The position numbers and the translations under genes are program-made. Source: Eledone cirrhosa (lineage: Eukaryota). Taken from it: 64,000 nucleotides of DNA. A model generated the notes under the pieces. That model was not told where the DNA came from. It searched no databases and saw nothing but the letters and a program-made list of their open reading frames with translations. Below, in pieces: positions 1 to 59,604 of the stretch. Each line of letters opens with the position of its first letter. Positions within the stretch are counted from its first letter, which is position 1. The stretch is taken from assembly GCA_964016885.1 (NCBI GenBank), contig OZ024742.1, positions 54,064,001 through 54,128,000 of the forward strand. Direction: 5' to 3'.

Positions 1-926
1 CTCCTGTGAGCCAATGATGTATCCCTCACATTTCTTGAACAGAAAGGACAAGGGGTTTAATGACGAGATGAATAATATCACAGAGGGACTGTCCCCCTGA
101 AATATACCCCTGCAATATTTTATTTTATCAGTGAAAATAGAGTCCTCCCTCTCTGTCTTTAACCTTAGGATAGTAGCCCAAGAAGAAGACAGCCTCTCTA
201 TGGCTCTGACAATAATGTCTGGGACTTTAGCAAGTTGGAGGGCCTCTATCATCCAAGAGTGGGGAACAGAATCGAAAGCTTTCCTGTAGTCCAGCCAGAC
301 TGTAGTCATATTCCTCCTAAGTTGTCGCACCTCCGACATCGCAGTTTTGTTGATTAGGAGTTATTCAGCGCATCCCCAAACCCCTTTCTTTCCAGCTGCT
401 TGTTCATCTGTGATGATGTTATTATTTTCACAGTGATCTTGGAGGAATAGGTTCAGGCAGGCTGTATACATCTTATACATCAGGTTCTGGCATGCAATGG
501 GTCGGTAGTTTTTTCCAAGTCGGTGTTTTTGTTCTTGGGGACCAGTAATGTTTGTGCTAATGTCAACCATTCTGGTATAAGTGTATCTCCCTTAGGAACT
601 TGTTCGTAGAGGTCAGTAAGATACCTCCGATAGAATATCAGTTGTTTGTACCAGTAGCCGACAATCATGTCTCTTCCTGGTGTTTTCTTATCTTGGAGTT
701 TTCCTATCACAGTCTCAATGGTACCCTCACTTATTCCGTATGTTTTTGTTGTAGTGTAGGAGCAATAGTTCTTTCGAATTTCTCTTAGCCACACTGCATC
801 TTGGTTGAAATTCTTTTTTTCACCCCATATTTTGCTCCAAAAGGAATCTATGTCTTTCTGGGATGGGGCCTCAGTGACACTTATTATTTTGCCCTTCATA
901 TCTCTATAGACTGATGTTTGGTTTCG
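1..926 (-). mobile_element. R4/Dong-clade non-LTR retrotransposon fragment (RT N-terminal half), 5'-truncated, runs off the window edge
   Basis: Minus-strand peptides FWSKIW, KTPGRDMIVGYWYK, NYRPIACQNLMYKMYT, EQAAGKKGVWGC, WLDYRKAFDSVPH and GIFQGDSPS. Homologous to 26800-27716. The truncation point abuts (TATG)n at 927. Confidence 0.88.
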
Positions 927-1020
927 TATGTATGTATGTATGTATGTATGTATGTATGTATGTATGTATGTATGTATGTATGTATGTATGTATGTACGTA
1001 TGTATGTATGTATGTATGCA
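927..1020. repeat. (TATG)n microsatellite
   Basis: Direct reading. Confidence 0.97.
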
Positions 1021-1554
1021 TGCATGTATTTATGTTTGTATGTGTTTGTGTGTGGTTGTGTGTGGTTGTGTGTATGTGTTATACCAAGTTCTGATTCTAT
1101 AACTTCTAGATTTATTCTTTATATTGATTTTTATACACGTTTGACAAACTTAACTTCATCTAATCATATATTCACATTAAACCTACAGAATAATATATCG
1201 GGTTATCACTTTATAGAACGTTTCAAGATTCAATACTGGAAGGACTTTTGTAAAACTCATAAATATGCAATACCTAACTGATCATAGATATTCTGAGAAT
1301 GTTTAATGTAAATATCTTAAAGGGAGCAATATTTAAATGAATATATTAAATGCTTACCCAAATAGTTTAACCTTTTCTAGTATGATCACTTAAACATTCT
1401 GACATTTTCCAAAAAAAATACTCTAGCATTCCTTTTAAAGTTGCGTGCACGGATGTAATGAATTAGAGTTTTCTAAAAAATTAGCTTGCAGCTAGCAGTG
1501 AAACAATCCCTATTGTAATGGCTACAGATGTTATTTAATATATATTCTCTTATT

Positions 1555-3558: not shown

Positions 3559-3604
<46 letters not shown>

Positions 3605-3605
<1 letters not shown>

Positions 3606-3795
3606 TTTTAATATAGATGAGATTCTACAGGACTAGAACTGTTTCATTCATTAGAAATCATCAGGAATCTGATGATTTCTAATGAATGAAACAGTTCTAG
3701 TCCTGTAGAATCTCATCTATATTAAAACTTTTATACTCTGCTATGTATTGAGTACCTTACTTACTGTGGTTACCTCCGATTCAACCCGGAATAAC

Positions 3796-4079: not shown

Positions 4080-5690
4080 GATTTATCACGTCTGTATCAG
4101 CCAGAGCTTCATTGGATGTGATGTACGAGTGCTAAGATATGCTAACATGCCATCAGATCACTACCTTCTTCTGACATCAGTGAGACTTCGGCTCAAAAGA
4201 TCCACCAATATAGGCCATCCATGAACAAGATACAACTTTGGACTGTTCAAGAATAAAGGGACACAGGCTGCTTCCGGGATAAGCCTCTCAGACAGGTACT
4301 AGCCTCTACAGGAGACAATAAAAGACGTTGGGACAGATCAAATAGATAGCAGGCAGATTCCAGCAGGATGAGAAACCATTGAAAGACAACAATGGGTACT
4401 CATTGACAACAACTGCGGAACAACTGAAATGATGGGTAGAGCACTCCAGGGATCTGCTGAACCGCCCACCCCTAAAGTACCACCAGATACCCCACTAGCA
4501 GACACTCAAATACCCATTAATTATGACAATCCCTCAAAAGTAGAGATCAAGAAAGACATCCTGACACTGAAATATGGGAAAACTGTAGAGTCGGACGAAA
4601 TATCAGCAGAAACCATCAAAGCAGAAATAGAAACATCTGTCAACATGCTACACAGCCTCTTCAGTAAGATCTGGGAGAAGGAAGATATCGCGACCCAGTG
4701 GAAGGAATGGATTATCATCAAACTGCCGACCAAGTTCTACTGGAGGGGATAAGAGTACTACTGGAAGAGATAAGAGTACAACTAGAGGGGATAAAGGAAA
4801 CAGTGGAACCCAGTTTTCTGGATTAGCAGAAGGCATTCTGCAAGAACAAATCCTGTTCTGATCAGAACACCTAGCTACGCATTATCGTGGAGCAATCACT
4901 GGAATGGAATTCCCCACTCTACGTCAATTTCATAGACTACGAGAAAGCGTTCGACAGTGTGGACAGAGAGACACTGTGGAAGCTGCTGATGGACTACGGA
5001 ATGACTGGGAAGATTATCTCCCTCATCCGGTGCACTTACCAAGACATGAGTTGCAGGACTGCCTAAGCCAGCCAACTGTCAGAGAGTCTCATGGTGAAGA
5101 TGGAGTTCGTCAGTGGTGCTTGCTGTCTCTGTTCCTCTTCCTCCTGGTATGGAAACCACGACAGCATACAGGAACAATGGTATACAATACACACCCTGGA
5201 CACAACTGGATGACCTCGATTTTGCTGATGACCTGGCATCTTCAAATCCAACGTGAAGGCGCTACTGCTGTACAGATGTTAAACTTGGAGGACAACAAAG
5301 AAGATGCAACAGAATATCCAGACATTCTTCAACATCTGTCTGAGGTGCATCTACAACATCAAATGACCGGAGAAGATCAGAAACGAATATCTGTGGGAGC
5401 AATCGGCACAGGATCCAGTGGTAAAGCAGATTCTGCAGGAGAAGAGGAGCGGTATTTGATATACCCCCAGGAAGCCATCATGCAACACAACACGGCAATC
5501 CCTGACCTCGAACCCGCATTGTAACAGGAAGGAGGGCGGCCTCGTGGGAGCTGGAGGTGTGACACTAAGGCTAAATTTAAAAAAAAATGGAAGCCAGCTG
5601 GAGTGGAATGACGAGAGCAGCCCAGGATACTGGGCGAAAGCTCGTCAATGGCCTATGCTCCACAGAGAGTGATTGGGTTAGATGAAATGA
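4080..5690 (+). mobile_element. RTE-clade LINE, internally deleted and decayed
   Basis: APE C-terminus (SDHYLL), then WKEWIIIKLP, RIIVEQSLEWNSPLYVNFIDYEKAFDSVDR, GVRQ and LDDLDFADDLA; RTE-type 3' end gcctatgctcc; several frameshifts. Confidence 0.9.
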
Positions 5691-8752: not shown

Positions 8753-9761
8753 TCCGTGACTTCAGTGTTTTATAGTAGAGATCTCAAATGCTGAATCTTT
8801 TCATTTCCTGACATCGATATTTATTTTGTATTTCCATCTACTTACTTGCTAAGATATTTCCATTTTCTTTCCGGAATAATAGATTTTCCATCAAAGAAAG
8901 TTTGTGAAGTAAATAACAAAAACAATTCATTCGTTCATCAATACTTAAAATTCATCGACAATTTATTGCTTACCTGCATTTATATACATACAGAAGTGAA
9001 GAAATGAAAACATCATATTTTTACGCACGGTAATGTATACAAAGCCCACGATTTCTGTGCATGGGAATAACATAGATCTGACTTGTGACATACTATATAC
9101 TATTTCTCTTGGCAATCGAATATGATGCTATATGACTAGAAATATTTTGATATGTTTGGAAAATAATATTTGTTGGTTTATTGACGTACAGCAAACGTGC
9201 TTGAGTTGTATCAATAATCGGTACGTAAAATGGGAAATAGACTTGAAAAAGCTTTTGGTTCTGAAAATGTATATATTAAATTCATAGACAGATAGATTAT
9301 TTCGATGGATAGATATAATGATAGCACAGACACACACAGACACAGAGACACAAAGACACAGACATGCATATATATATATATATATCTGGGACTAGACTCC
9401 TTCCTCTCGTTTGACCTGTGCGAAATTCTTTCCTTGCTCACATTTCGATTAGGTTTGATGGTCTTTATTCTCTCTCGTCCACGATTTCACAGAATTATAT
9501 TCATAGATTTCTGGGACTTGCCTCCTTCTTCCTCACTTTTCGTTGCATTACCATCTTTGATTGTTTACAGTCTCGCTCGATCCCCTTATTTGCGTGTCCC
9601 AACGACTTTCTTTAGCCGTTGCTCGCACCAACCGGAGGTATATGGTCTTTAAAGCGATGAAATACCAATGAAGGTTGGAAGATCACTGATGAAGGACTAA
9701 ATTTATTCATATATATATAATTTCTATAGTTTTCATTTATATATATATATATATATATATA

Positions 9762-11500
9762 GTGAAAAATGGAACGGGAACAAAACAGAGAGGCAGTACG
9801 AACAAAGGTTTATTAGTTTCACGCTCTTGAGAGTGGGGTGGGGTGAGGAACGACGTTTCGGGCATAAGCCCTTCTTCAGGCGAAAAGTGTGTGGGAAGAG
9901 AGTTCCGAGGGTGTGTATGGGAGTGGGGGAGAGACATTTAGAAAAAAGGGTGGAGGGGGGTGGTAAGGAAAAGGAGGAAAAACGGTGGAAGGGGTACAAA
10001 TAGGATTCCGGAGGCTGAGTGTGTATATATGTGGGGGTACGCACGTGTGTGTGGTGTTTATACGTATTGTGGAGTAGGTGGTGTGGTTGGAAAAAAAATT
10101 TGTGAGTGTATGTCCGTGGGTAAGTTCCTAAGGTTGTTCCGTAGAGGGAGTGGTGAGTGGCCGGATATTTTCCTTGTGATTGAGTTGATGGTGGGAACGA
10201 TGGCCGATGTGTGTAATCCCTCGTTGTGTTGGTCGGAAGAGGAGAGATGTGGGGTGCGCGCGCAACAGGAAGTGGTCAGAGGGTCAAGGCAGGAGGAGGG
10301 TAGATGAGAATGATAGGTGGAGAGGGCTGTGTGTCTGTGTGTGCGGAGAAGTGGTCAGAGGGTCAAGGCATAGCAGCAGTAGAGGAGAATGGCAGATGGA
10401 GAAAGTCAGTGTGTCAGTGTGTGCGGTGGACAGGAGAGAGGATGGGTAGGTGTGAAAGGTTGAGTGGGGAGGGGGTCGTGCGGGGGAGGGGGGCGTATTA
10501 GTAGGAGTGTTAGTGGGATGAGTGTGTGTGAAGAGGTGTGGGTGGAGCGGGGAGAGGGAGAGAAAGGTGTGGGGGACGGTGGGGTGAGTGTAGTGTACTG
10601 GTGTGTGTGTGCGTGTTTGGATGAGTGTATGTGTGTGGTGAAGGGAGTGTTAGTGGGTGTTAGTATACTGGTGGTGGGGAAAGGGTTGAATGCGGGTGTG
10701 TTAGTGCGGGTCAATGGTGGTAGGGTGTGTAGAGTGCGTGGTGTAAGTGGGTGTGGGTGGGTGTGTGTGTTCGTGTGCGTGGGGTCGGGGGGATGTTAGT
10801 GGTATTAGTTGTGGGGTAGTGGGAGTGGATGTGTGGGTGAGGGTTAGTGGTGGTAGTAGGGTGTGTGGATGGTGTGAGTGCGTGTATATATGTACCGGTG
10901 GGTGTGTGCGTGATAGGGGTAGGGGTAGGGAGGGGGGATATGTGAGTAGTGTTAGTTGGGGGAGGGTGGTCAGGGGTGGGGTGGGCGTCTTAGTATTGTT
11001 AGTTGTGGGGTGGGTGATAAAAAGGAGGAGTGTTATAGTGGTGTTAGTGGGGGATATGTGTGTGTAGGAGGGGGGGACAGGGCGGTCGAAGGCTAAAGGA
11101 ATAGGGGTGGGGAGTTCAGGCCGGGGGAGTGTGGGTCTGTAGGGTGAAGATGGTGCGTTGTTCGACCCTGAGGAGGGTGGTGGGTGTTACGTGGCATTGG
11201 AGTAGGCCACAGACCGTGAGGTGGTGCGCGGAATGTCCAGGGGAGCCAAAAAGTCGGGCGATGAGGGAACTCCCGCCGAGACGAATATCCCGGAGGTGTT
11301 CGGTGAAACGGTCCGCCAGGCGACGTCCAGTCTGTTCGACGTAGGTTGCGCTACACTCCGTGCAGCGAAGTCCATAGACTAGGTCAGAGGAGGTGCAGCG
11401 GAAGGCATGCCGGACAGAGAGAGAGTGGACTTTGGGACCCTGGAAGGTGGTGGTGTTGGTGATGTGGGGACAAGTGTTGCAACGAGGCCTGGAACAGGGA
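9762..11500 (-). mobile_element. Neptune-type PLE 3' portion: GIY-YIG endonuclease, long CA-rich 3' UTR and HHR
   Basis: Minus 11400-11110 reads CTSSDLVYGLRCTECSATYVEQTGRRLADRFTEHLRDIR...EQRTIFTLQTHTP; HHR at 9851-9882; ends in (TA)n. Confidence 0.88.
9851..9882 (-). ncRNA. Minimal hammerhead ribozyme motif
   Basis: CTGAAGA-A-GGGC-TTAT-GCCC-GAAAC-GTC; stem I is weak. Confidence 0.7.
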
Positions 11501-11506
11501 AGGGAA

Positions 11507-12127
11507 CCGTTCTTGCTTTCTTCTTATTCTTATTTTTAAGCATCTAGCAACTACCCAGCCAACCCTCTTCTTCATATATTTTATCATGGTTCGCTGTGCC
11601 CCATCTTCTCTCTCCTTCTACCTACCTATTTTGTTGCTATCTACTCTTCCCCCTCTTTCTTTCTCTCTCTTTCTCCCTCTCACTATCACTCACTCTCTCT
11701 CTGTTAGCCACCTCATCGTTTCTCTCGTCTGACCCTCTAGCAGTTCTTTTCTCACTCACACTCGCTGGGATCAGACGTGTCTTTTCGCTCGTCCACACAA
11801 TCCAGAACTTATGTTCAGTAATCGTCTGGACTTGAATTTTTTCTCTTTGAGTTGATCGACCACTCTTCGATTGGTTTTCTCTCGTTTATTTCTGCTTTTC
11901 TTTGCTGTTTTTCTCTTTTCTCTTTTTTCTCTTTTTCTTTCTGTTATCCTATATTATCTTTCCCTCCCTCCTTCGTTTTCCCAATAACTTACCTAGTTAT
12001 TGAACGCACTGGGGGTAGATATCTTGTCTTTAATGCGTAGAAGTAGAAATATCCGAGACCCCCAGCAGACAACTGATGAGGACCCCGCCCCCGTTTTTGC
12101 TTTCTTCTTTTTCTTATTTTTAAGCAT
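11507..12127 (+). mobile_element. Non-coding ~584-nt unit with terminal direct repeat and a permuted HHR-like motif
   Basis: 11507-11543 is repeated at 12091-12127; homologous to 40211-41043 and 38190-38310 (both minus). Confidence 0.7.
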
Positions 12128-12139
12128 ATATATAGATAT

Positions 12140-12336
12140 AAAATATAGAAAGGGCTTCTACAGGACTAGAACTGTTACATTCAAAGGAAATCATCAGGAA
12201 AGGGCTTTCCTGATGATTTCCTTAGAATGAAGCAGTTCTAGTTCTGTAGAAGCCATTTCTATATTAAATATTTATACTCTGCTATGTTTTAAGTACCTTA
12301 TTTTCTGTGGTTACCCCCGATTGAACCCGAAATAAA
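12140..12336 (+). mobile_element. Family A HHR end with 5' inversion
   Basis: Palindrome centred at ~12202 with HHR cores on both arms. Confidence 0.75.
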
Positions 12337-12369
12337 CACACACACATGCACACACACACACGCACACAC

Positions 12370-13523
<1,154 letters not shown>

Positions 13524-13540
13524 TATATATATATATATAT

Positions 13541-13732
13541 ATATAGATGAGATTCTACAGGACTAGAACTGTTTCATTCATTAGAAATCATCAGGAATCT
13601 GATTCCTGATGATTTCTAATGAATGAAACAGTTCTAGTCCTGTAGAATCTCATCTATATTAAAACTGTTATACTCTGCTATGTATTGAGTACCTTACTTA
13701 CTGTGGTTACCTCCGATTCAACCCGGAATAAC

Positions 13733-13735
<3 letters not shown>
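13541..13735 (+). mobile_element. Family A: perfect palindrome of two complete HHRs plus 3' tail
   Basis: HHR minus 13551-13599 and plus 13601-13649: gattc-CTGATGA-TTTC-TAAT-GAAT-GAAA-CAG-ttctagtc-CTG-TA-gaatc. Confidence 0.85.
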
Positions 13736-13765
<30 letters not shown>

Positions 13766-14149
13766 TGATAAATTCCCAAGGCCAGTATAATGCGGATAGA
13801 AAAATATATACATAAATATGTTATTGGTATGACAAATAATGTTTTTTGCCCTGTATTTCATCATATTTTATATTTCATCATATTTTAAGGTAAATAACCC
13901 AAAACGATGCATCTTCCTGTAGTGTTCATTGTGCATGAATGGAGTAATCATAAACGCCACACTCCTCCATGTGGCTTGTTTTATTGTTCATTAGTGGTTT
14001 TTGTGTGTTTATAATTAAGGCTTTTTTAATTTTTAAATACCCCTACATTCTTCTCCGTCGCCTCAATGTTGATCTCAGTGTCTCGATTGCATTATTTATA
14101 CATTATACTGGCCTTGTGCCTATACTAGAAATCATTATATATACATTAT

Positions 14150-14981: not shown

Positions 14982-15060
<79 letters not shown>

Positions 15061-15064
<4 letters not shown>

Positions 15065-15222
15065 AACAAGTATGACCCCGACGGCAGAGCTCAAGCCGAC
15101 GGATAATTCTGAACTCTGCCGTCGGAGTCATACTTGTTCCTATTAGCCACTCTACTACCCTAAGTATTGAGTACTTTAATACGTTATGCTCCATCTGGTT
15201 CCTTACCACATTTCCTTCGTTA
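15061..15222 (+). mobile_element. PLE-type 3' tail with 5' fold-back
   Basis: Inverted repeat 15061-15142; tail shared with 3438, 52506 and 59018. Confidence 0.7.
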
Positions 15223-15237
15223 TATATATATATATAT

Positions 15238-16700
15238 CACCAAAACAAAATATATCAGTCACATCACATTTTTAAGTCGCTGTCTCCACAACTACCTCAT
15301 TCCCGGAAGTTTCTGCCTCAAGTTCCACCTCACCTCTTACTCCGCTACCACCACTGAGCCCATCATTACGCGCTCCTTTCGCGGGTGACTACCCGATCTA
15401 CTCTCGCCCAAATCCGTCTCTCGACTGAGATCTCCCCAAGGCCTACCGCCATCTCTCCTCCACTTGCCACCCCTCCTCGCCCAATCCCTTATCCAATTCA
15501 ACCATTACCTCATCGCCTCCTCTTCAATTTCCTCACTTCCATAAAAAAACAACAAACTTCACTCACTCCGCTCTCAGCATGCCGTCGCCACCCATATTCA
15601 TTTCATCTCCAGCCGTAACCATACAATTCCATCACCTACCACCCCCTTTCCTCTCCCCACCACTGAATCTGTACACGTTATGCGTAGCCACCTTAGCCCC
15701 TCCGCCTCCGCCACTTTCACTCCCTCACGTCCCTCCACTGTTGTCACCATACCCCAGGACCTACCGCTCTCCGAAGCTGGGCGCTCCATCCTCACCCGGG
15801 GTTTGCGTTTTAAAACTAACCACATCAATCTGCCACTTTTCCCTACATGTCTCTGTCCGGGGTGTCCTTTTACATCACTGATCACAGGCCTCACACACCA
15901 GGACTGAATAGAGTTTTATTTACCGCCTTGCGTCCTGTTTCCCTCATGGACTTAGCTCCCCTCACCAATTTCTTCAATATTTCACATATACGTTCATGCT
16001 TACTTCTCTACCTTTTGTCCCCCTTTTTACCCCGTCCGTTATCACAGCCGCGCTTGTACATTCACCTCTAGATTCCTATGGCTCGCTTCTCAGAAACATA
16101 TACTCTTACAGCTGATACACAATACGCACATAAACTCTACTTTTCCCTTCACAGCTCTGTATACACACACACACACACTCCCTTATATTAACATACTTTC
16201 GCTCACAGCTTCGTACTTACAAGCACACACCCTTTTGCTTACATATACGCACACATATCCTCTTAGCTTCGTACGGACGTATAATAACACACACACACAA
16301 ATACACACATACACACACAAACACAGACACACAAACTCGCACACTCGCACACACACTCACAAACACACACACTCGCACACGTATAGCTTAATATACAAAA
16401 GTTTTTTATTCCATTTCAAGTAGCCGCGCTCCATCATCCACTTTTGTAAAATAAGTATATCACAGTTTTCCAAGAGATGTCAACATGAATGGACCTGTAA
16501 TTTTTCTCTAAAAAAATTATTCTCCGATTCCGCCCTGCCGGCCCCCTCTATCTTTCTAATTTCTCGTTCTTTCTTCTGATGAAAGACTAGTGTCCGAAAC
16601 GTTAAGATCCTCTTCCTGCTATTTCAAGAGTTAACTTAATATATTCCTTCCATATACTGTACCGATTGTGTTTATATTTCTGTTTACCTTTTACATACAT
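15238..16700 (+). mobile_element. Internally deleted Neptune-type PLE
   Basis: N-terminal motif VVTIPQDLPLSEAGRSILTRGLRF joined almost directly to C-terminal HTPGLN; HHR at 16572-16607. Confidence 0.72.
16572..16607 (+). ncRNA. Minimal hammerhead ribozyme
   Basis: tctt-CTGATGA-A-AGAC-TAGT-GTCC-GAAAC-GTT-aaga; cleaner paralog at 34519-34554. Confidence 0.72.
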
Positions 16701-16796
16701 ATATATGTATATGCAGATATATAGAGAGAGACGTAGATAGAAGGATTGAGAACGAAGGAGAGAGAGAGAGTAATGTGCGTGTATATGTGCGTGTGA

Positions 16797-16890
16797 AGGC
16801 GCATTGTTTAGTAGTTAGCATATCCAGCCGACGATCGTGAAGTCATGAGTTCGATGACTGGCGCTTTGTATCCTTGAACAAATCATTTGC
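16797..16890 (+). mobile_element. tRNA-headed SINE 5' fragment
   Basis: ggcgcattgtttagtagttag...gagttcgat...tgtatccttgaacaa. Confidence 0.55.
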
Positions 16891-19469
16891 AGCATTAATG
16901 CGAAAGACCATTCATATCACATCAAGTTAAATTTACAAGTGTGACTGTTTACTCCACCGTATCAACTGGTATACACATCGTCGGAACCAAGGGTTGGTCA
17001 AAATACGCAAATACACAATCATACATACATACACATGCACACACACAAACGCACACACAGAGAAACCCTCGCACATATATGGCGTAGAGTTTAGTGTTAG
17101 AGATACAGTGTAAGTTTAGTCCAAGATATTGTTTATGGTTGGAGGGTAAGTTTATGGTGAAGAATTAGGAATATGATTTCGAACTATGTTTTACAATTAA
17201 GGTTTTGATTTTATAGTTAGCCTCTTTTAATGTCAGAACTTCGGTTTAGGAATTGTTGTATTGATAGAATTGTAATCTGCAATGTTTAAAGCATTGAATA
17301 GATTTTGCAATCAATAGGAACCATACGATTATAGTATTCACCATTATGACACGGTTGCATATATGATTTGTATTAGTGTCACACATATTCAATTAAATAT
17401 TGAAACAAATTTGACAGTTATTTTATTTATCCATCGACGGTGAAATGAAATAAACTACAATGTGATTTGAATTCCGGACGGAAAGATTGTTATTTAAATA
17501 TCTGCTAGTATTTTATTCAACCTTCTACCGATTTCGTCAAGCGGCACTATCATAATAATATCTAGCAATTGAAGGAGGTCACAATTTTTGTGGAGGGTAT
17601 ATATACATTCCATTTACCAACCACTGTATTTGAATATATTTTATCGAAAACAGTAAGATTAAATGAAATATTTTCGTCGCGGGATTTGATTTCAAAAACA
17701 ATGTAACATAATACGCATTTCCTCACTGTATTATTCTAAGTCTGGCTTAACAAATATCTGATGTTTTCAAGCATGTCACGCCATTATTGAAGGATGTTCA
17801 CTGTTGTGTGCTGCCTTATTGTTGTCGCTGTTGTTGTTACCTATGAAAAGTACTGACTTCGTAGAACAGAGCTATGATCAAAGACTTCCAGTCAGTGAGA
17901 ATCCACCCTGTTTACATGTAGAGCGCACTCCAGGCTACACCAGTCAATGTGCATAGTACAATTTAAGGAAGATTGCTTTGTAATATATTTCCGGATGAGT
18001 AATGATATAAATTTATTACGAATTGATTAATGATGCAGCTTAAATGATTAAGCAAGATATGTCATCACATGCAGGATTTGGAAATTAATTATAACATAAT
18101 TGGTTTTCACGTCAAGTTATTTACTTATAAAATTTATTCAATCTGCATTATTAGAGTTCCTCGTTGAATATAGCAGATATGCACAGCCATCCACTAGATT
18201 TTATGTATTTACTAGGAATTAAATATTGATATCTAATCTGGAACAAACATAAATATAACAAAAGAGGGAGCTTCATTGGGTCCACTGTGAGAGATAACAT
18301 CCAAATTCTTCTGACTTAAAAATAGAAAACAACCTATTTAATGTTGTTCGAACAACACCCTGTCTAATTATTTGAGACACCGGCGCTTTGAATACCTTTT
18401 ATCAATGACTATTTTGTTTTTGAGCCAGGCACTTTATTTCACGTTATACCTGTCCAGTCAACTAGAAAATAGGAGTACCCCTGTGGTGAGTTGGCACAAT
18501 TATGTGTTCTCTTTACTTATTTAGCCATTTTCTCTCACATTTCTTTTTTACTCTTTATAATTAATACAGCAAAATATGAGATTCTACCCTAAACATATAT
18601 AGCATTCATTCACATTGCTAATGGGTAAACGTTACTTGACAAATTATATTAACATAAAAGTCAATGTCTGATTACTGCGACATATATAATGTCTCCTATT
18701 CGAACCTTTGGGAATTACAGAATTTTATCTCATTACACACGAGTGATAATGTCATGTGATATCATATATTATTCCATGTGATGCTGTATAGTTCCATTGT
18801 TCTTTTTTTCTAATTGTACTCTTAATCAATGTCACTGGTCATTAATGTTTCGACATTCTGAATACATCGTTACACTTCCATTAACAATATTTAATTTTCA
18901 TTATTAAAATATTGATTATGATTAACACATCTGTGTGATTGAATGGTAATTAGATTAGATGGTATAATTAAGTTTCTGCTTGTCAATTACTATAAAACAG
19001 ATATTTGGCAAAATTAAAATATCATTCGGCTGCTCTATGTATACAAATGAAAGCATATGGTATAATGATATCAAATACGGTTCATATATTGTATCTATGG
19101 TTTATTTTTATCATATAAAAATTGGGGAATGAGAAAACAGAATATTATTTAGCAGTTACCTGAGTTCAAATATCTATAATAGGGTTATAAGACACTTCCC
19201 TGCAAATAAGTGAGGCGCTATCAAATATTTAACCAAACAAAGGTAATTTTGATTCAGAAGTTGTTCAAAGTCGGTCTAAATAATTTACAATGGTAAATTC
19301 CGGGCTAAATATCTTAACAACTAATGGTTGTATATTCTTTGTTGACACCCCATTGGCTTAGTCAATATAAACTGTACAGAACTGGTATTGACGTGGAATC
19401 ATTCAGCTATAACGCCATTGTACTTCAAACATATTTAAATCTTTCATATTTATATGAATGTTGAATTAT

Positions 19470-19648
19470 GGGGCGTAACTAATTTATTTACGTTATGAGT
19501 TCAAATCCCGCCGAAAATAAAGTTGTCTTTCATCTTTCCTGGGTTGATAAACTAAAGTATACCAGTAAAATACTGGGGTCAGTACAAACAACGTACCCTT
19601 TCTTAAAAGAAGTGCTGGCCTTATACCTTAGTTTGAAGCCATTATTAC
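19470..19648 (+). mobile_element. Old copy of the Nin-domain SINE
   Basis: gagttcaaatcccgccga...tttcatc...gggttgataa...ctggccttatacc. Confidence 0.7.
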
Positions 19649-20957
19649 TTAATTTACCGAACTAACTCATATCAATTTGATGGTCGGTATTATAAAGCTT
19701 TGTTTCTGATTCATAAAAAATTGTTATGTAATTAGTTGGTTTTATTTTAATATCTTTCTATGAATATCACATGCTGTATCTTACCATGATACAGTAGAAT
19801 GTATCATCGATTAGCATAATGCGATACGCTACACAACATAGCTTATTCTACCGTGACGTTCGAGAAATTGAAGGTATGAAGATTAAAGGAGCAGTTATGA
19901 GACTATGGGTTATACAATATATTTGCTGTTGTATCGTCATGGTTCCATGGTTGTTGCACAAACTAATACGAAACAATGGTAGAAAGTTTAAGATATAACC
20001 GAGTACAACACCAGCAAGAATATTGTTTACTAACATATCTTCAAATATATAGGAAACAGAAACTGTTGTTTTCTAATTCTATAACAGAGATAATTCAATA
20101 CCTTTTAGACAATAATTCCCAAAGTATTTATTTTATATTCTGAAATACTATAGGCAATATGATGAGCATTGTGATGATGTGAAGAATAAATAACATGTTT
20201 CAAGAAAAAAAAACAACACCAACAAAAGATACTCCCGTATGAATGCAATCAAATTTACATCGCTGCCAGTAACCAATAGAAAGATTTATCTTATCTTTCT
20301 TTTGCTCGAGGAAGGAAGACACCTGGCTGATTTTGACAAACACACATTCAAATATATTTGTAATAGCATAAATTTGAACGTTAGTAATTGAATACGCTAT
20401 AATTGTATCTGCCTTTTCTTAAACAATAGACTACTATTGATGCTACTCGAATAATAAATGGTAAGAATAACTACACACGCAAGCTGATATTTAGTGCATA
20501 CACTAATGTATTATGAAATAAATATGTAATAAATTTTGGTTCAGTAACAGGGGAAAATCATGGTATAATGTACGGAGAGTGACAAACTTCACACCACAAA
20601 ACTGTTGGCATAGACCGTGAAAAATACGAATGCAGCGAAATAATTAATCGCAAAAGTTTTAGTTAATTGGCCCGATGCAAAATGTTTGAATGTCATATGA
20701 GACACAGCTAGAGAAACGCAGACGACAAAAACAAGCAGGGAAAATTGATATCAGTGCATAGGTTAAATATTAGCGGTTTTCTGTTGATATCACTTAAACA
20801 TGAATACGTCCCCATATCACATATATGCACCAATCAATCAATATATATGTAACTACATAATCTATATATACATTATATATATGTATCTATATAAATAAAT
20901 AAATAGAAAAATAAATATATATATATATGAATATATGAATATATATATATATGGATG

Positions 20958-22195
<1,238 letters not shown>

Positions 22196-25248: not shown

Positions 25249-28200
25249 TTAGATGCAGAATTTTTGGAATGTTTTACATAATTTTACTGTTCCATTAAAG
25301 GATTGTACTTGTCATTTCCTAACTAGTCGTGTTCTTTCTGTTTCTGTGAAGCCCAGCTTCTCAAAATGTGTACTGACGCAGTTACTAACATATCCCAGTT
25401 CCTCAATAATCACCGGTATAAATCTGAAGGTATAATCAGTGTGGGAGTATCTGCAGTTTCTCATTAGTTCTGCTTAGATATTCTCCTTTTCGCTAATCTT
25501 TAATATTATATTGGCATCTGCTGGGCAACTAACTTCTATTACTGCGCATGCATTCTTTTCTATGTCCCATCTCATTATATCTGGTCTGTTATGCCTGCAT
25601 TTTATTGGGGTTGTGACTGAAACATTCGTCCAGTACTCTTTCATGATATGTATATGGATGTCTTCCACATTGCTGTAGCTAGCTTTTCTATGGATTGCAC
25701 TGTAGAGTGTTTTGGTGACTACATCATGCCTCATAGGTAGATAGTACTGTGATGACATCTTTGGACAGCTGCTTATGACATGGGTAACATCTTCGATTTT
25801 AATTCTGCAGAGTCTGCACTTATTGTCACATCTAGGTCTTTTGCCTGCATCCCAATCTCTTTTGTGAATCAGGTATTTTGTGTTGATTTCCTGTTCCTGG
25901 ATTGCAAAATCATTGCCAATATAGCGGTTGTTGGTCTAATATAGCCTACGTTGCTTATCTATATTACTCTCACTCTGGAGCTTCTTGGCAACATATCCAT
26001 GCATGACCTTTTGCTGATAAGCATGCTGTTTTTTTATCCATGGATTCGCAGCGTCATTGCTGGGCAATTTCCCTGGGTGCGAGTTTTTCATTATCATGTA
26101 GACAGTATCTTTCGATGAGTTCCTTCCCAACTCTCATAATATTATCTGTCTCATGCAGACAGACTTGCTCAATAGATGGATCCTACGCTTAGAGGTTCGT
26201 AAATATTGTCGGGGGGATATGATGCGACATTAAAATGCTGTCTGGACCGATTTTAAGCCTGTGCCGCTCCGCTTACGTTTCAAGACGCGGTCTATGTCAC
26301 TGTTGATGTTGAAGTTTCCGGTGTTGTTACAAGGTTTCGAGTTTTAATCATCAATTGCTCGGATTTCGTGTATCGTCCACTCGAGTATTCCAAACGTTGG
26401 TGTTAGGACAGGTACAGCAAGCACATTGTGAGCCACTGTTTTACTGTGCACAGAGAATTTTGATGACCATATATGACCGTAATCGGGTGTAATATTCCCT
26501 GGTTACGCGTTCCTTATTACAAATACCATTATAGGATATAGTCTCATCTATCCCCAGGTATCTGTAGCAGTCCTCGTCAGATATCGGTGAAACAGTTCGG
26601 TCATTGATACACATGTTGCTAGAATGGGTTGTAGTTTTTCTTCGCTTAACAATCATAGATGAACATTTATCTTGTCCAAACTTCATTCCTATATACGTTG
26701 ATAAACACATCAATATTTTTTTTCCATCCAATTTATGTTCTTGGTATAGAGTTTCAAGTCATCCCCAATGAAATTATGGGTTAAATTCGTATTTCTGTCC
26801 CCCTGTGAGCCAATGATGAATGCCTCACATTTCTTGAGCAAAAAGGACAAGCAGTTTAATGACGGGATAAATAGCCGCCCAGAGAGTCTATTTCCTTGAA
26901 ATATACCCCTGTGATATTCTATTTTATCAATGGAAATAGAATACTCCTTCTCTGTTTTTAACTTTAGGATAGTAGCCTAAGAAGAAGACAGCTTCTCTAT
27001 GGCACTGATAATAATGTCTGGGACTTTAGCAAGTCGGAGGGTCTCTAGTAGCCAAGAGTGGGGAACAGAATCAAATGCTTTCCTGTAGTTCAGCCAGACT
27101 GTAGACATATTTCTCATAAGCTGTCGCACCTCTGACATCGCAGTTTTGTTAATTAGGAGTTGTTCAGCACCCCCTCCCAAACACCTTTCTTTCCAACTGC
27201 TTGTTAATCTGTATGATGACATTACTGTTGCAGTGATCTTGGAAAAATAGGTTCAGGCAGGCTGTATACATCAGGTTCTGGCATGCAATGGGTAGGTAGT
27301 TTTTCGCCAAGTCGGTGTCTTTGTTCTTGGGGAGACTAGTATTGTTTGTGCTAATTCAACCATTCTGGTATAAGTGTATCTCCCTTGAGAATTTGTTGGT
27401 ACAGGTCGATAAGATACATTCGATAGAATATCAGTTTTTTTTACCAGTAGTCGACAATCATGTCTCTTCATGGTGTTTTCTTATCTTGGAGTTTTCCTAT
27501 CACAGGCTCAAAGGTATTCTCATTTATTTCGTATGGTTTTGTTGTATTGTAGGAGCAATGGCTCTTTTGGATTTATTTTAACCACACTGCATCTTGGTTG
27601 GAATTCTTTTTTTCACACCATATTTTTCTCCAGAGGGAATCTGTCTTTCTCGGATGGGGCCTCAGTGACATTTATTACTTTGCGCTTCATATGTCTATAG
27701 ACTGATGTTTGGTTTCATCTGAATGTTTTATTAATTACTTTTCTTTCATCTGTCCTCTCCAAGTACCGACGTTTCTCGATGACAGTTTTCAATTCTTGTT
27801 TGAGGGTTATCAGCTTATATTGAAGAGTTCTGGTTCTACTGTTACCAAACATCGTCTCTATTTTATTTTTCAGTCTTTGTTGGTGAGGAGTGAATTTTTG
27901 TTTGTTTGTTTGTAAATAGGGTGCATTGTCACATATCCTATGTAGGTCAGCAATCTTTCTTTTCTATTTTAGTTATATATGATGGTATTTTTGATGTTTT
28001 GTTCTTGTTAATATTTCTGCTGTCACCAAGATAATGCTTCACTGTCGTTGCTAAGGCATATAAGCAGGCGTTGGGGTTTTTAATTGATCGTAAATATGTA
28101 TCCCCTACTTCGTTAATAGCACGTAAGATTTCATTATTTGGTTTTATTTTGTTTAGTATTGTTGTTGAGGGGAAATTTCAAAAGTTTATACTTTTGGTTA

Positions 28201-36371: not shown

Positions 36372-37785
36372 AAGAATCAAAAAGAACAGAAAGATGCAGT
36401 GAAAGAGATTTATTCGGTTCTAACGTACGTTTCAATAGACATCAATTTGCCTAGATCTCGCTGCATCTATAATATTATATAGTTAGTAGAGCATTCGACA
36501 TCCAATGCACAATCAATTCCATATCATCAGAGTTTATGTTTACCGCACCAGAATGTTCAGGTTTTTATAGGAATTCATGTGAAGTTGAAGTAAACCCTCC
36601 TGCAGCAGACACACATATAAACCTAACGCAACCTGTACAAGATAATAATACTACAAGAGCTGATAAGTGCAACTGCAACCTACCTGATCGTTGACCTCTG
36701 AATAACAAATGCATGGAATCCAATATGGTGTATCAATGCACCGTTGAATCGGATAACCGGAGATGGCACTATATCGGATGTACCTCTACCGCTTTTAAAT
36801 CTCGTTGGTACCAACACCGTAGTTCGATGAAGAACATCAAATACCGTTCCGTAACTACCTTAGCCAATACAATTTGGCAGTTGCGCGAAAGTAACCTGCA
36901 ATACACTTTGAAATGGACAAAATTCTCTAGTGCTTCCGCATATCGTGCAGGCCAGTCTTACTGCCGATTATGCAATATGGAGCTATTTTACATACTAAAA
37001 TCGAATTATACTCTCCTCAACAACAGAACGGAAAGGACTCTATATTGCAATCACAGACTCAAGACTACGTTCTCGAAATACAAACCTGGCTTGATTTGAT
37101 CCTGCGACTTCTGCTTTCCTCTATCTTCCTTCTACCTCCTCTATCTGTCCCCATGGATTATTGCTATGCCTTCTATTGACCACATCTCCCCTATTCAACA
37201 TCTCCTCCTACATACTTTACAAGTCACTCGGCCTAATCTCCCCTGCCTCCATCTATCATAGATCATAAACCTATCAACGTCTACCATCTCCCTAGCACAC
37301 ACACAGTTGGACTAGTCCATATCTAGACTTCATTATCGTATTTTATCCTCCTCTCTGTTTTACCTCAACAACCATGAAAAACCCCCCTATCTCTCTCGTC
37401 TTTGTCACATCCCCCTTCTTCTCTACTTCAACTTCACATGAATTCCTATAAAAACCTGAACATTCTGGTGCGGTAAACATAATCTCTGATGATATGGAAT
37501 TGATTGTGCATTGGATGTCGAATGCTCTACTAACTATATATTATAGATGCAGCGAGATCTAGGCAAATTGATGTCTATTGAAACGTATGTTAGAACCGAA
37601 TAAATCTCTTTTACTGCATCTTTCTGTTCTTTTTGATTCTTTATACACGCCCCGGAGTATAGCTAAACTGGAATATACACCTATTTTCTGCATTTCGTTG
37701 AGCATCACTCTGTTGTAAGCTGACCTTCCCCTACACGGTACATAACACTGTGTCCTGGAAAACCTTAATGCACTCGTGCATAACC

Positions 37786-37844: not shown

Positions 37845-38160
37845 TTCATGTGAAGTCTCATGGCTTATTGTGCGGTTGTGAATTTGATTCTACGATCGAG
37901 CTATGTGTTGTGTTCTTGGGAAGGACATAATATTTCACGTTGCTTCAGTTCAATCAGCTGTAGAATTGAGTTGCCACGCCTCTGGTGTATAGGTCTTTGC
38001 CATTCCTTTGGACAACATCAGTGGCGTAGAGAGGGGAATCTGTTATGCATTTGGCCACAAATCGTCTTCTACAAACAACCTTGCCCGGACTTGTGCTTCG
38101 GAGGGAAACTTTCTATGTACAAATCACATGGTCATTCATGACCGAAGGGGGTCATTCCCC
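37845..38160 (+). mobile_element. SINE (tRNA head, tgtgttcttgggaaggaca core, gtcattcatgaccgaaggggg tail)
   Basis: Motif recall of octopod SINEs; no search run. Confidence 0.55.
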
Positions 38161-38320
38161 TATATATATATATATACATATATACCTTAAAATGGAGTGA
38201 GAATAAGAAGAAAGCAAGAACGGGAGAGAGTTTTCCTCATCAGTTGTATACCGGGGGTCTCGGATATTTCCACGCTTTAAAGACAAGATATCAACCGCCC
38301 AAAGCGTGTATATATATATA

Positions 38321-39302: not shown

Positions 39303-39655
39303 TTATCCCCGGGTTCAATCGGGGGTAACCACTGTAAGTATGGTATAACAATTTAATATAGAAAGGCTTCTACAGGACCAGACTGTTTCATTCCGGAGAA
39401 ATCATCAGGAAACCGGCTGTCCAAGTAATATGGTGGTACTTATATCTTTTCTGGCGGTAGGGGACGGTGGTGATTTGGGAGGGTGGAGGTCATTGGTTGA
39501 TGGCTTTAAAGAAAAGGGAATTCTTTAAAAAACTATATTTAGAATAACAAAGGCAGAAAGAATTCTATAGACAGGTTCACTCTGGGGGTGCCAGTCCATA
39601 TTTGTAAGCTTCACTTAAGTTAACAATGCCTTTGGTCAGGTGTCTACAAACACAG
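39301..39655 (-). mobile_element. Family A PLE 3' end with HHR 39365-39414
   Basis: ggtttc-CTGATGA-TTTC-TCCG-GAAT-GAAA-CAG..CTG-TA-gaagcc; stem I covaries with 13601. Confidence 0.8.
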
Positions 39656-40186: not shown

Positions 40187-40210
40187 TATATATATATATA
40201 GAGAGAGAAA

Positions 40211-41042
40211 GAATAGAATTGGCTGTGTAGTTGCTATTTAAGGAAACTTAAAATGCAGTGGAAATACGAAGAAAGCAAGAACAGGGGTGGGGGTGGGGGA
40301 GTTTTCCTCATCAATTGTCTACTGGGGGTCTCGGATATTTCTACACTTTAAAGACAAGATACCTCACCTCAGGGCGTCAATAACTGGATAAATTACTGGG
40401 AAAACGAAGGAAGAAGGGAAGGAAAGCTAAGGGGAAGAAAAGAGAAAACAGTAACAAAACAGCGAAAAAACACAACGAACCGAGCAATGTGCGAGCAACT
40501 ATAGGTAGGAAATCCAAGACCACTCGATAAAAGAACTTAATTTCAAGACTGAATGGTCGAGAGGAACAAGACACACGTCCGGTCGCCGCAGTTGTAAGTG
40601 AGAAGAGAACTGCTAAACGGTCAGGCGAGGGGTAAAAGTGAGAGGGAGAAAGGGAGAGGAAGAAAGTCGGGTAAGAGTAGATAGGGAGAAAAAGAGCGGA
40701 AGAAAGAGGGTTGAGAGCAGAAAGTGGCGAAATAGGTAGGCGGAAGGGGAGAGAAGATTAATCACAGAGAAAAACATGATGAAATATATGGAGAATAGAA
40801 ATGGCTGTGTAGTTGCTATTTAAGGTAACTTACAATGCAGTGGGAATACGAAGAAAGCAAGAACGGGGGGGGGGGGGGAAGCTTTCCTCATCAATTGTCT
40901 ACTGGGGATCTCGGATATTTCTACGCTTTAAAGACAAGATGCCTCACCCTAGGGCGTCAATAACTGGATAAGTTATTGGGAAAACGAAGGAAGGAGGGAA
41001 GGAAAGCAAAGAGGAAGAAAAGAGAAAACAGTAGCAAAAGAG

Positions 41043-41043
<1 letters not shown>
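40211..41043 (-). mobile_element. ~1.4 tandem copies of the ~582-nt non-coding unit
   Basis: 40211-40460 is repeated at 40793-41043; homolog of 11507-12127. Confidence 0.8.
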
Positions 41044-41086
<43 letters not shown>

Positions 41087-44207: not shown

Positions 44208-47628
<3,421 letters not shown>

Positions 47629-49199: not shown

Positions 49200-50300
49200 A
49201 ATACACACACGTACACAAACATACAACATATGAGGCACAATTCAAGTACGTTATACATATGGAAAAAGCAGATAGGTAAGAAGTACGTACACAACCATAA
49301 TACCGTGAGACAGGTCGAGATGGGGGTAGGGGTAGGGTGGTATGGAGGTGGAGGGGATATTTTGTCGAGTTGCTATTTTTATTTTTTTATTTTTTATCCA
49401 TCTGACTTTAACACTGACTGAAGATATTTGAAAGCTGCAAATCTTTTGTGCATGCAATTCGGGCAATGTTCAAAGAGTTTGTTCAGTGTCTTTTGTTCAG
49501 TTTGTTCAAATTTCTATTTGAGCGTGAAAGGGGTGGAGTTCCTTTTGAGGTGCCAGATATAGGAGGCGAGTCTTGTCTGATTGGATTTGTCCGGACTTCT
49601 GAAAGAGTGGGTATGGGCATACCAGAGTACCAGCATACGAGCGGGTCTTAAAATTGTTGGAAGTCATTCCGATATAAGTCTTTTTGTTGTTGTCACCAGT
49701 GCCTGAGATGACATCAGATTTGTATACGATGTCATTTGTCAGGCATTTGTTTTCAAGTGGGCAGGCTTCCTTATTTTGGCAGTTGCACAAAGCTCCCGTC
49801 CGGGGATGGGTTTCGGAGGTAGTAGGCTTATTTAAATTTGTAGCGTTGAGATTGGCTATATTTCTAGCTAGGTTAGGTGTAGTGGAGTAGAAGAGTCTTA
49901 TTGTATTCTTATTAAAGATAGTGTAGTACCTATGTTGTGTGGAGAAGTGTATATTTAGCAATTTGAAGTAAGTCGTAGCTATAGGTGCAGAAACCTCCCT
50001 ATTGAAGAGGGGAGGCGGGAGAGGGGGAGGGTGGGTTGTACCAACTAATCTGCGTATGCCTATTTCTCCTAGGTAGTCTTGGGGTGGTTTCTAGATAAGT
50101 AATCTTTTCTTTAAAGTCAGTGCGGGCGAGGGTGTCGGTGTAGTGAGGGTCATAGGCGCTAAAGATATCTTCATTGGCCGAGAGACCGGAAATGCTTAGT
50201 GAGAGGCTTTTAACTAAGTTATCTGTGATGTTTTTGTGTTTTTGGGTGGTTCGAATTAACATTTATATATCTGAGGGACACGTTAGGTTTGAGGCACGGG
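49200..50300 (-). mobile_element. CxCx5C-type PLE fragment (RT thumb, linker, GIY-YIG), frameshifted
   Basis: ISWYNPP..IFNKNTIRLFYSTTPN..CNCQNKEACPLENKCLTNDIVYK..TYIGMTSNNFKTR. Confidence 0.9.
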
Positions 50301-52495: not shown

Positions 52496-52819
52496 TATAT
52501 ATATATAACGAAGGAAGTGTGGTAAGGAACCAGATGGACCATAACGCACCATAGTACTCAATACTTAGGGTAGTAGGATGGGTAATAGGAAAATGTTCAA
52601 GACACCGGGGTCTTGAACATTTTCCTATATATATATATGTTTATATATATATATAATGCGGTTTTGATTTGATCATTGAAGCAGCTGGCTGATTTACAGG
52701 TATTTCCCTGCTCTAGTTCCTACAATAGATTTACGAAATATTTACACAGTCAATGCTCAAAATCATTCCATATCATGTTTACACCCCCCCCCCCCCCCCA
52801 CACACACGCATATATATAT

Positions 52820-53337: not shown

Positions 53338-53384
<47 letters not shown>

Positions 53385-53387
<3 letters not shown>

Positions 53388-53880
53388 TTAATATAGATGA
53401 GATCCTACAGGACTAGAACTGTTTCATTCTTTAGAAATCATCAGGAATCTGGGTATCAAAAAATAAATATGGTATTTAAGGTCTCTTCAGGTGGTAGGAG
53501 AGGGTATGGAGTGGGATGGGTAGAGGTTATTGGTTGATAGAAAAGGGAATTCATTAAAAGCTAATTCTTTAAAGCTATTATTTATATTTAGAGTAACAAA
53601 GGCAGAAAGAATTCTATAAACAAGTTCAGAATGGGCTGCCACTCCTTATTTTTAAGTTTCTCTTAAGCTAACAATACTTATATTTCAGGTGTCTATAAGA
53701 TCGTTGGGGGTCAGTCATGGTTGATGGATTTAAAGAAAAGGGAAATTCTTTAAAAGCTAATACTTTAAGGTTCTACTTAGAGTCACAAAGGCCTAGAGAA
53801 TTCTATAGACCAGTTCAAAATATTGAAGGCCTATCATACCATTATCTTCAAGTTTCTCTTAAGCTATATTCCAAATGTCA
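53385..53880 (-). mobile_element. Family A PLE 3' region with HHR 53401-53449
   Basis: Matches 3605, 13541 and 39301; upstream part homologous to 39415-39655. Confidence 0.75.
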
Positions 53881-59021: not shown

Positions 59022-59494
59022 AAAATGTCCAAGACCCCGGGGTCTTGAATATTTACCTATTACCCATTCTCATTTTCCTATTACCCATTCTACCCTAAGT
59101 ATTGAGTACTCTGGTGCGTTATGGTCCATCTGGTTCCTTACCACTCTTCCTCCGTTATATATGTATATAAATGTCTAAAAATATTGATAACCAGGAGATG
59201 AAGGGGGCCCCACCTACATAAAATGATTTCAACTTGTACAAAAATCCCTAGAGATCTAATTGACATTATATACATATATATATATGTGTGTGTGTGTGTG
59301 TGTATCCATATACATATGTATATGTATGTATATGTATTGGTACACATATATATGTATATGTATGTATATGTATAGGTACATGGAGTTGCGACCGATAGAT
59401 AGTATTAGCAATTGGAACGAACAATGGAAGCATCGTTTCTCCGGTTCGATTAGACGAAAGTCGATCGACTAAGAAGATATATATTGATGTGTGT

Positions 59495-59509
59495 ATCTAT
59501 CTATGTATG

Positions 59510-59584
<75 letters not shown>

Positions 59585-59604
59585 TTATCTATCTATCTAT
59601 GTAT
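59495..59604. repeat. (CTAT)n microsatellite
   Basis: Direct reading. Confidence 0.95.

Follow-up and report, generated by a model that had tools for sequence, protein, structure and literature searches.

Results

A rewired hammerhead core in family A repeats

The window, that is, the whole 64,000-nt stretch of Eledone cirrhosa DNA analysed here (assembly GCA_964016885.1, contig OZ024742.1, positions 54,064,001 to 54,128,000), is microsatellite-rich and contains many retroelement remnants. Several of its repeats carry what we predict, from the sequence, to be a rewired, self-cutting hammerhead core. The features of family A are as follows.

11507..12130 (+), copy A1: a non-coding 584-nt unit followed by about 40 nt of a second unit (partial tandem)
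11975..11981 (+), 5' strand of P0, an extra closing helix, which pairs with the bases right after the core
11982..12002 (+), hairpin P1, flush with P0 and ending next to position 10.1; 8/8 pairs in A1, A3 and A4, 7/8 in family C with different letters
12004..12008 (+), putative stem II 5' strand, lying ahead of the cleavage block; 5/5 pairs with 12034-12038
12009..12016 (+), 5' strand of the I-II helix (compare the interaction helix of Eckert et al.); 8/8 pairs with 12058-12065
12018..12029 (+), block S, made up of a stem III strand, AUC (cut predicted 3' of 12023), and a stem I strand
12034..12053 (+), block G: stem II 3' strand, a 6-nt duplication, GAAA (12046-49), stem III strand
12058..12086 (+), I-II helix 3' strand, followed by the stem I strand, by CUGAUGA (12073-79), and by the P0 3' strand, damaged in A1
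38160..38308 (-), copy A2: a fragment beginning at position 10.1, without the P0 5' strand or P1; stem II 9/9
40209..41046 (-), copies A3 and A4: a partial tandem containing the motif twice (at 40301-40405 and 40881-40985), each time with U at core position 3

The four pairings named in the original prediction all form in A1: the upstream helix (12004-08/12034-38, 5/5), stem I (12024-29/12067-72, 6/6), the I-II helix (12009-16/12058-65, 8/8), and stem III (12018-22/12049-53, 5/5). GAAA (12046) lies 5' of CUGAUGA (12073), as had been noted, and the arrangement is pseudoknotted, with the predicted cut after AUC at 12023. Eckert et al. 2023 (PMC10085705) split the hammerhead into blocks S, G, and C and distinguish six block orders; the window motif has the order S-G-C and so belongs to none of types I, II, and III, which need the circular order S-C-G. 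Read from 5' to 3', it comprises the P0 strand, hairpin P1, the stem II strand, the interaction strand, block S, a U/A linker, block G, the interaction partner, the stem I strand, CUGANGA, and the P0 partner. P1 and P0, which lie 5' of 12004, had escaped the original prediction, as had the family C motif described below.

All four expected copies of family A are present, with the three minus-strand cores at 38243, 40314, and 40894. The proposed tandem unit of 582-584 nt agrees with the period of A1 (584; 11507 to 12091) and approximately with that of the pair at 40209-41046 (580-582), but the copy at 38.2 kb is a 5'-truncated fragment rather than a unit of a tandem. A1 is damaged by the 6-nt duplication before GAAA, which is absent in other family members, and by a broken P0; A3 and A4 carry U at core position 3, and A2 is truncated. 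The copies in the window are probably mostly impaired. Identity between A1 and A3 is modestly higher within the motif (62/77) than over the unit (343/501).

The same helices in families B and C

Two further repeat families contain the motif.

9596..9697 (+), family C: core intact and every helix present, with the cut predicted 3' of AUA at 9642
12655..12721 (-), family B, 5' half of the motif, located in the tandem partner and comprising P0, P1, the stem II strand, and the cleavage block, with the predicted cut after 12662
13432..13487 (-), family B, 3' half of the motif; the element copy starts at 13487, the first base past the predicted cut

We found that families A, B, and C share identical helices built from different letters; families A and C have only a short stretch around the linker and GAAA in common. 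CUGANGA, GAAA, an NUH site with A15.1-U16.1, and stems I and III are complete in A1, A2, and C, while family B has the full hammerhead core only when its two copies are taken together. Across the halves of family B (12655-12721 versus 13432-13478), the 5' part being followed by a 44-nt deletion, P0 forms 5/6, the I-II helix 6/6, stem III 7/7, and stem I 6/6 pairs; stem II has 5 pairs, with G-C next to GAAA. The similar layout that had been placed on the minus strand at 13428-13490 is half of a motif; its cleavage block is absent there and sits at 12655-12721.

In the window copies, the upstream strand provides 4-9 putative stem II pairs. The first of these reads A-U, G-C, and U-A across families A, B, and C, and the 10.1-11.1 pair next to GAAA forms in two of six copies. 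P0 pairs completely in A3 (7/7), A4 (7/7), and C (4/4), nearly so in B (5/6), and only through its 3 inner pairs in A1. It starts 0-1 base past A9 and is flush with P1 in A and C; 0-3 bases separate the end of P1 from stem II. On both strands, 0-7 nt connect the I-II helix with stem III.

The 5' end of family B is adjoined head to head by a piece of another repeat family (13488-13524, +), and the same repeat starts at nearly the same base in a second insertion (15060-15096, -; also 52606-52634), which suggests that this repeat has a defined 5' end and was mobilised jointly with family B. The 5' ends of copy C (9389) and A1 (11507) lie at or just 3' of the expected P0 strand of a previous unit. 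Ends so placed would fit reverse transcription halting at the fold, the evidence for C consisting only of a 6-base repeat.

Statistical support and covariation

A descriptor of the S-G-C order found 4 loci in the window, the family C motif among them, versus 0.18 per dinucleotide shuffle (50 shuffles). The first version of a full descriptor found only 1 locus versus 11 in 300 shuffles; a fuller one, written after the copies had been seen, found 3 loci versus 10 hits in 400 shuffles. In an alignment of five copies without P0, 91.3% of 138 cells were paired and 9 pairs showed double changes, whereas shuffles of the same alignment had on average 83.9% paired cells and 3.0 double changes (0/500 as high), and slid controls reached 33-44%; four of the five rows come from one family, and the structure was derived from the same small, related set. 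Within the I-II helix, 93% of the cells were paired, and five of the six pairs had double changes.

The nested minimum free energy (MFE) structure contains P0 in A3, A4, and C. Nested folding was significant for A1 only (z -3.5), the other copies ranging from -1.0 to -1.7. A covariance model built from the five copies recovered no additional copy in the window and missed family B. Rfam gave no match at the gathering score in the window and no hammerhead family at E<=10 in 9300-13800.

Variation in public contigs and reads

Public contigs confirm that family A is a large family. We collected 1071 contigs from run X1, 26 from X4, one from a second organism (B), and 450 X6 reads; the head-to-tail joint from 12082 to 11507 is present in X1, X4, and X6. 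The sequencing runs listed as carrying the family included none identified as RNA. Summed depth, a rough proxy, reached 15,000-22,000 at 11963-12008 and 12055-12077 and at most 2,700 elsewhere in the unit. Compensation in stem II was apparent in X1, in which 12008 A>T (3262/4613) occurs with 12034 T>A (2633/5082), and the single contig from organism B carries both changes. For stem III, 12020 T>C was found in 241/295 X6 reads, with the partner G in the loose ends. Matching changes in the I-II helix also occur among the contigs and reads.

Among the variants listed, none fell in GAAA, CUGAUGA, or stem I, and the cut base 12023, where C>A is frequent (3634/6760), was never G; loose CUGANGA variants are present among the loose ends listed. 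A common change is 12039 A>T (594/3722 in X1, 176/232 in X6), which bears on the pair next to GAAA. Molecule ends of family A did not pile up at the predicted cut in the contigs and RAD reads, which are weak evidence for such ends.

Comparison with known hammerhead types

The S-G-C order, which the original prediction had taken for a possibly novel topology, is already published as type SGC (PMC10085705); the split of stem II to an upstream strand appears to be new. According to that paper, the non-circular types SGC and CSG cleave in vitro, type SGC being known only from metatranscriptomes and type CSG from two metagenome sequences. Type SGC (HRIMA-1 and SGC variants) shares with the window motif the S-G-C order, a pseudoknotted core, a helix between the tips of stems I and II, and a short U/A linker from stem I to stem II; in the window, this tip helix is found provided that the upstream strand is stem II. 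In type SGC, however, the stem II strand comes straight after CUGANGA, whereas in the window it lies at the 5' end, and P0 and P1 are placed at A9-10.1. Published SGC descriptors need the stem II strand directly after CUGAnGA (0-1 inserted base), and Eckert et al. assumed CUGAnGA to be always joined to this strand as an unbreakable block. The bases after CUGANGA in the window copies paired with the strand before GAAA in only 30% of cells and without any double change (379/500 shuffles as high), and slides of 1-3 raised this to at most 60%. Because these bases do not pair with the strand before GAAA, the motif is not type SGC.

Type CSG has the same cyclic order and interaction helix as the window motif, and the window order results when its stem I strand and core are shifted to the 3' end. 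It differs in that A9 is joined to 10.1 without P0 or P1; window copies show the CSG order only if the core is taken from the preceding unit, some 500 nt distant. Three CSG-order hits in the window were inspected by eye, and none was convincing; a descriptor scan gave one GSC-order hit.

Partial tandems also characterise the type I and minimal dimeric hammerheads in pseudo-LTRs of Penelope-like elements (PLEs) and the non-LTR retrozymes (PMC4209133; bioRxiv 10.64898/2026.07.22.740005). The PLE hammerheads described there are of the circular C-G-S order and dimer dependent, with a short palindromic helix III. With 5-7 pairs, stem III of the window copies sets them apart from minimal dimeric hammerheads, in which helix III is absent or short and palindromic. 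By analogy, the job of the window motif is likely to match that of the PLE hammerheads.

A literature search, mainly of open-access sources, turned up neither this layout nor any non-circular hammerhead in an animal genome, and the term "type-SGC" was found in the Eckert paper only. The sources compared, in their available portions, include PMC10085705, PMC13725137, PMC10162972, PMC3088659, PMC6765202, and bioRxiv 10.64898/2026.07.22.740005, the available text of which deals with type I hammerheads only. What appears to be new here is a stem II formed with a 5' strand (ACGC/GCGT) together with an extra helix closed by the bases after CUGAUGA. Weinberg, in 2015, reportedly described hammerheads with additional helices, which could be prior art for the extra helix.

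We also searched viral contigs and metagenomes. The pattern derived from families A and C gave 30 matches in viral contigs, none of which had the fold, and the specific A/C pattern gave no match in metagenomes. A CSG-type pattern retrieved 56 metagenome loci (36 distinct), one of which is a clear CSG (L034); the form seen in the window was found in 0/86 of the loci retrieved. L034 (1-352, -) is a clean type CSG with 6 pairs in stem I, 3 in stem II, 8 in stem III, and 8 in the interaction helix. It is a non-coding 252-nt partial tandem beside a microsatellite, and its upstream copy begins exactly at G10.1. A CSG tandem of this kind hints at a possible route to the split form in the window.

A proposed four-way junction in place of a backbone bond

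The motif is a real, conserved, pseudoknotted hammerhead-type fold. The comparisons above establish stems I and III, the pairing of the strand before GAAA with the strand 5' of the cleavage block, the I-II helix, P1, and P0. The motif has its core in the order cleavage site, GAAA, CUGANGA and, with these six helices, likely folds as a pseudoknotted hammerhead. The upstream strand probably serves as the 5' strand of stem II, because its position with respect to the I-II helix is precisely that of stem II in types SGC and CSG. In those types (PMC10085705), the strand preceding stem I pairs with the one that follows stem II; in the window, its partner is the strand that follows the upstream strand. 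From this placement, it follows that the motif can be read as the SGC/CSG circle opened between A9 and 10.1.

The wiring of P0, P1, stem II, and the core matches that of a four-way RNA junction. End-to-end stacking of P0 and P1 would keep A9 beside 10.1 with no bond between them, so that the junction would replace the A9-10.1 bond. The replaced bond seems to lie inside the very block that Eckert et al. assumed to be unbreakable. PLE hammerheads often have an extra base between positions 9 and 10.1 (PMC4209133), which indicates that this site tolerates change. The role of the motif would be to cut tandem transcripts to unit length, as proposed for other PLE hammerheads. Consistent with cutting, the family B copy begins at the first base past the predicted cut, with no matching base before it, although this is one event, recognised post hoc.

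We consider it probable that the motif is a cis-acting pseudoknotted hammerhead with a four-way junction, predicted to cut after 12023, carried by repeats that are likely of Naiad-type PLE origin. We also lean toward the broader view that it is a seventh natural hammerhead layout, opened inside the CUGANGA block via a four-way junction, and that it acts as a ribozyme in cephalopod and coral Naiads. Splicing as a means of restoring the A9-10.1 bond was considered and rejected: a GU donor is missing 3' of the core, the YAG lies inside P1, and no GT..AG joint occurs among those listed. In families A and C, a YAG follows a pyrimidine tract 6-7 nt before the stem II strand.

Alternative readings of the fold

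Short links join the I-II helix to stem III on either strand, and the cis fold may therefore be strained. For the same reason, a head-to-tail dimer is a real alternative, although we regard it as unlikely: the helices and chemistry would be the same but active only in trans, with the I-II helix and stem III forming one rod and the P0/P1/core end of one copy docking on the cleavage-site/GAAA loop of another tandem copy. The links shrink to 0 nt on one strand in family B and Naiad_Anas, the rod is the nested MFE structure in A1 and C, the copies are arranged as partial tandems, and other PLE hammerheads are reported to be active as dimers. Yet stem III is stable (5-13 bp) rather than the short palindrome that forces the known dimers, single-motif transcripts of SGC and CSG forms with comparable links did cleave, and C and A1 contain one motif only. 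Less plausible still is a hammerhead-derived fold that does not cut and has been retained as a binding or priming structure for the reverse transcriptase (RT) of the element. The damaged cores of A3 and A4 are in line with it, and a break at A9-10.1 has no tested precedent in the literature searched. In an Anolis PLE, moreover, hammerhead cleavage needed protein, hammerhead mutations left insertion in vitro unaffected, and none of the RNA-seq reads had its end at the cut (PMC11167929, available portion); since the hammerhead was dispensable for insertion in vitro, a ribozyme function in the cycle of the present element is not assured. Several observations speak against a fold that does not cut: three window families and distant Naiads alike have retained GAAA, CUGANGA, the NUH rule, and A15.1-U16.1 while their helices covary, and family B starts at the predicted cut.

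Stem II might instead be a small hairpin after the core (GGA-loop-UCC), with the break between 11.1 and G12 and the upstream helix acting as a scaffold. A 3-bp hairpin is indeed possible after the core in several family A variants, but its energy amounts to no more than -0.5 to -2.5 kcal/mol (0 in C), in A3 and A4 those bases make 7 pairs with the P0 strand, and neither Naiad_Anas nor Naiad_Esco has a hairpin there; we hold this arrangement to be very improbable. Chance pairing within simple-sequence repeats has been largely refuted and retains hardly any credibility: low-complexity DNA is abundant in the window and independent rows are few, but the shuffle tests and the occurrence of the layout in three families and several published Naiads speak against it. 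The cis-acting hammerhead with a four-way junction thus remains our preferred reading.

Relation to Naiads and other Penelope-like elements

Craig et al. 2021 (PMC8557442), in its available portion, presents Naiads as lacking canonical hammerheads; eight are marked "HHR_half_core", with no fold given there. We inspected by eye the 3' ends of 19 of the 54 published sequences. The form seen in the window was present in 5/19, namely, Naiad_Ovul, Naiad_Anas, the record preceding each of them (Obim and Aacu by table order), and a degenerate Naiad_Esco. By eye, Naiad_Anas has 6/6 pairs in P0, 6/6 in P1, 6/6 in stem II (with G-C on GAAA), 9/9 in the I-II helix, 13/13 in stem III, and 6/6 in stem I. 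In both Naiad_Ovul and Naiad_Anas, the upstream strand contributes to a G-C pair that directly abuts GAAA and corresponds to the usual G10.1-C11.1. The nematode Naiad_Hpol and the record preceding it contain a near-perfect type CSG (PMC8557442 File S5), while the spider Naiad_Smim and its preceding record contain type SGC with a long inserted hairpin, one of the two cores being decayed. No such fold was seen by eye in the remaining 10/19 3' ends. The oyster Naiads, Naiad-1_Skow, and Naiad-1_Movir have no core near the 3' end and show another conserved motif, which in Naiad-1_Movir resembles twister.

The Naiads of PMC8557442 resemble the window families in their (TA)n targets, in their partial tandems, and, by eye, in the fold within the 3' UTRs of cephalopod and coral members. 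They differ in that Naiads have an ORF with an N-terminal GIY-YIG and a C-terminal RT, whereas the window units have none; a motif scan detected neither RT motifs in the six frames of the window nor a Naiad ORF. Partial tandems (pseudo-LTRs) and (TA)n insertion sites are found in the window families, but neither is unique to Naiads. Because the window families have no ORF, their membership is deduced from the shared fold, the partial tandems, and the (TA)n flanks, features that make them likely non-autonomous derivatives of a Naiad-type PLE.

If the proposed layout is correct, it would break the rule of six block orders with an unbreakable CUGANGA block and would imply that a helical junction can stand in for a backbone bond of a catalytic core. 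It would also move non-circular RNA permutations from anonymous metatranscriptomes to named animal genomes and, together with the nematode CSG and spider SGC Naiads, make animal genomes their main reservoir. The apparent lack of hammerheads in Naiads, which dominate many invertebrate genomes and reportedly amplify in the absence of these ribozymes, would be explained: Naiads may carry rewired hammerheads overlooked by standard descriptors and Rfam.

Neighbouring retroelement remnants

A1 itself is adjoined by a remnant of a PLE.

11116..11506 (-), remnant of a PLE GIY-YIG endonuclease, head to head with A1 and perhaps a separate element; aligns with 21351-21800 (E 6e-07)

This remnant has no Pfam match of its own, while 21351-21800 has a sub-cutoff GIY-YIG match (E 0.0007). 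Further PLE GIY-YIG remnants were noted at 21351-21803 (+), 36695-37099 (+), 42693 (+), and 49506-50090 (-), with a Pfam match, below the cutoff, only in the first. ORF remnants at 59399-60634 (-), 480-1118 (-), 4372-4752 (+), and 25474-25935 (-) resemble what we take to be non-LTR retrotransposon proteins. The window also contains short elements with hammerheads of the type I order (12140-12330, 13547-13733, 3589-3779, 39343-39422, and 53376-53447), in which the 5' end folds back with its apex just 5' of CUGAUGA and not at the cut site. Hammerhead-like cores of canonical order with a long stem II are present at 45851 (+) and 61201 (-).
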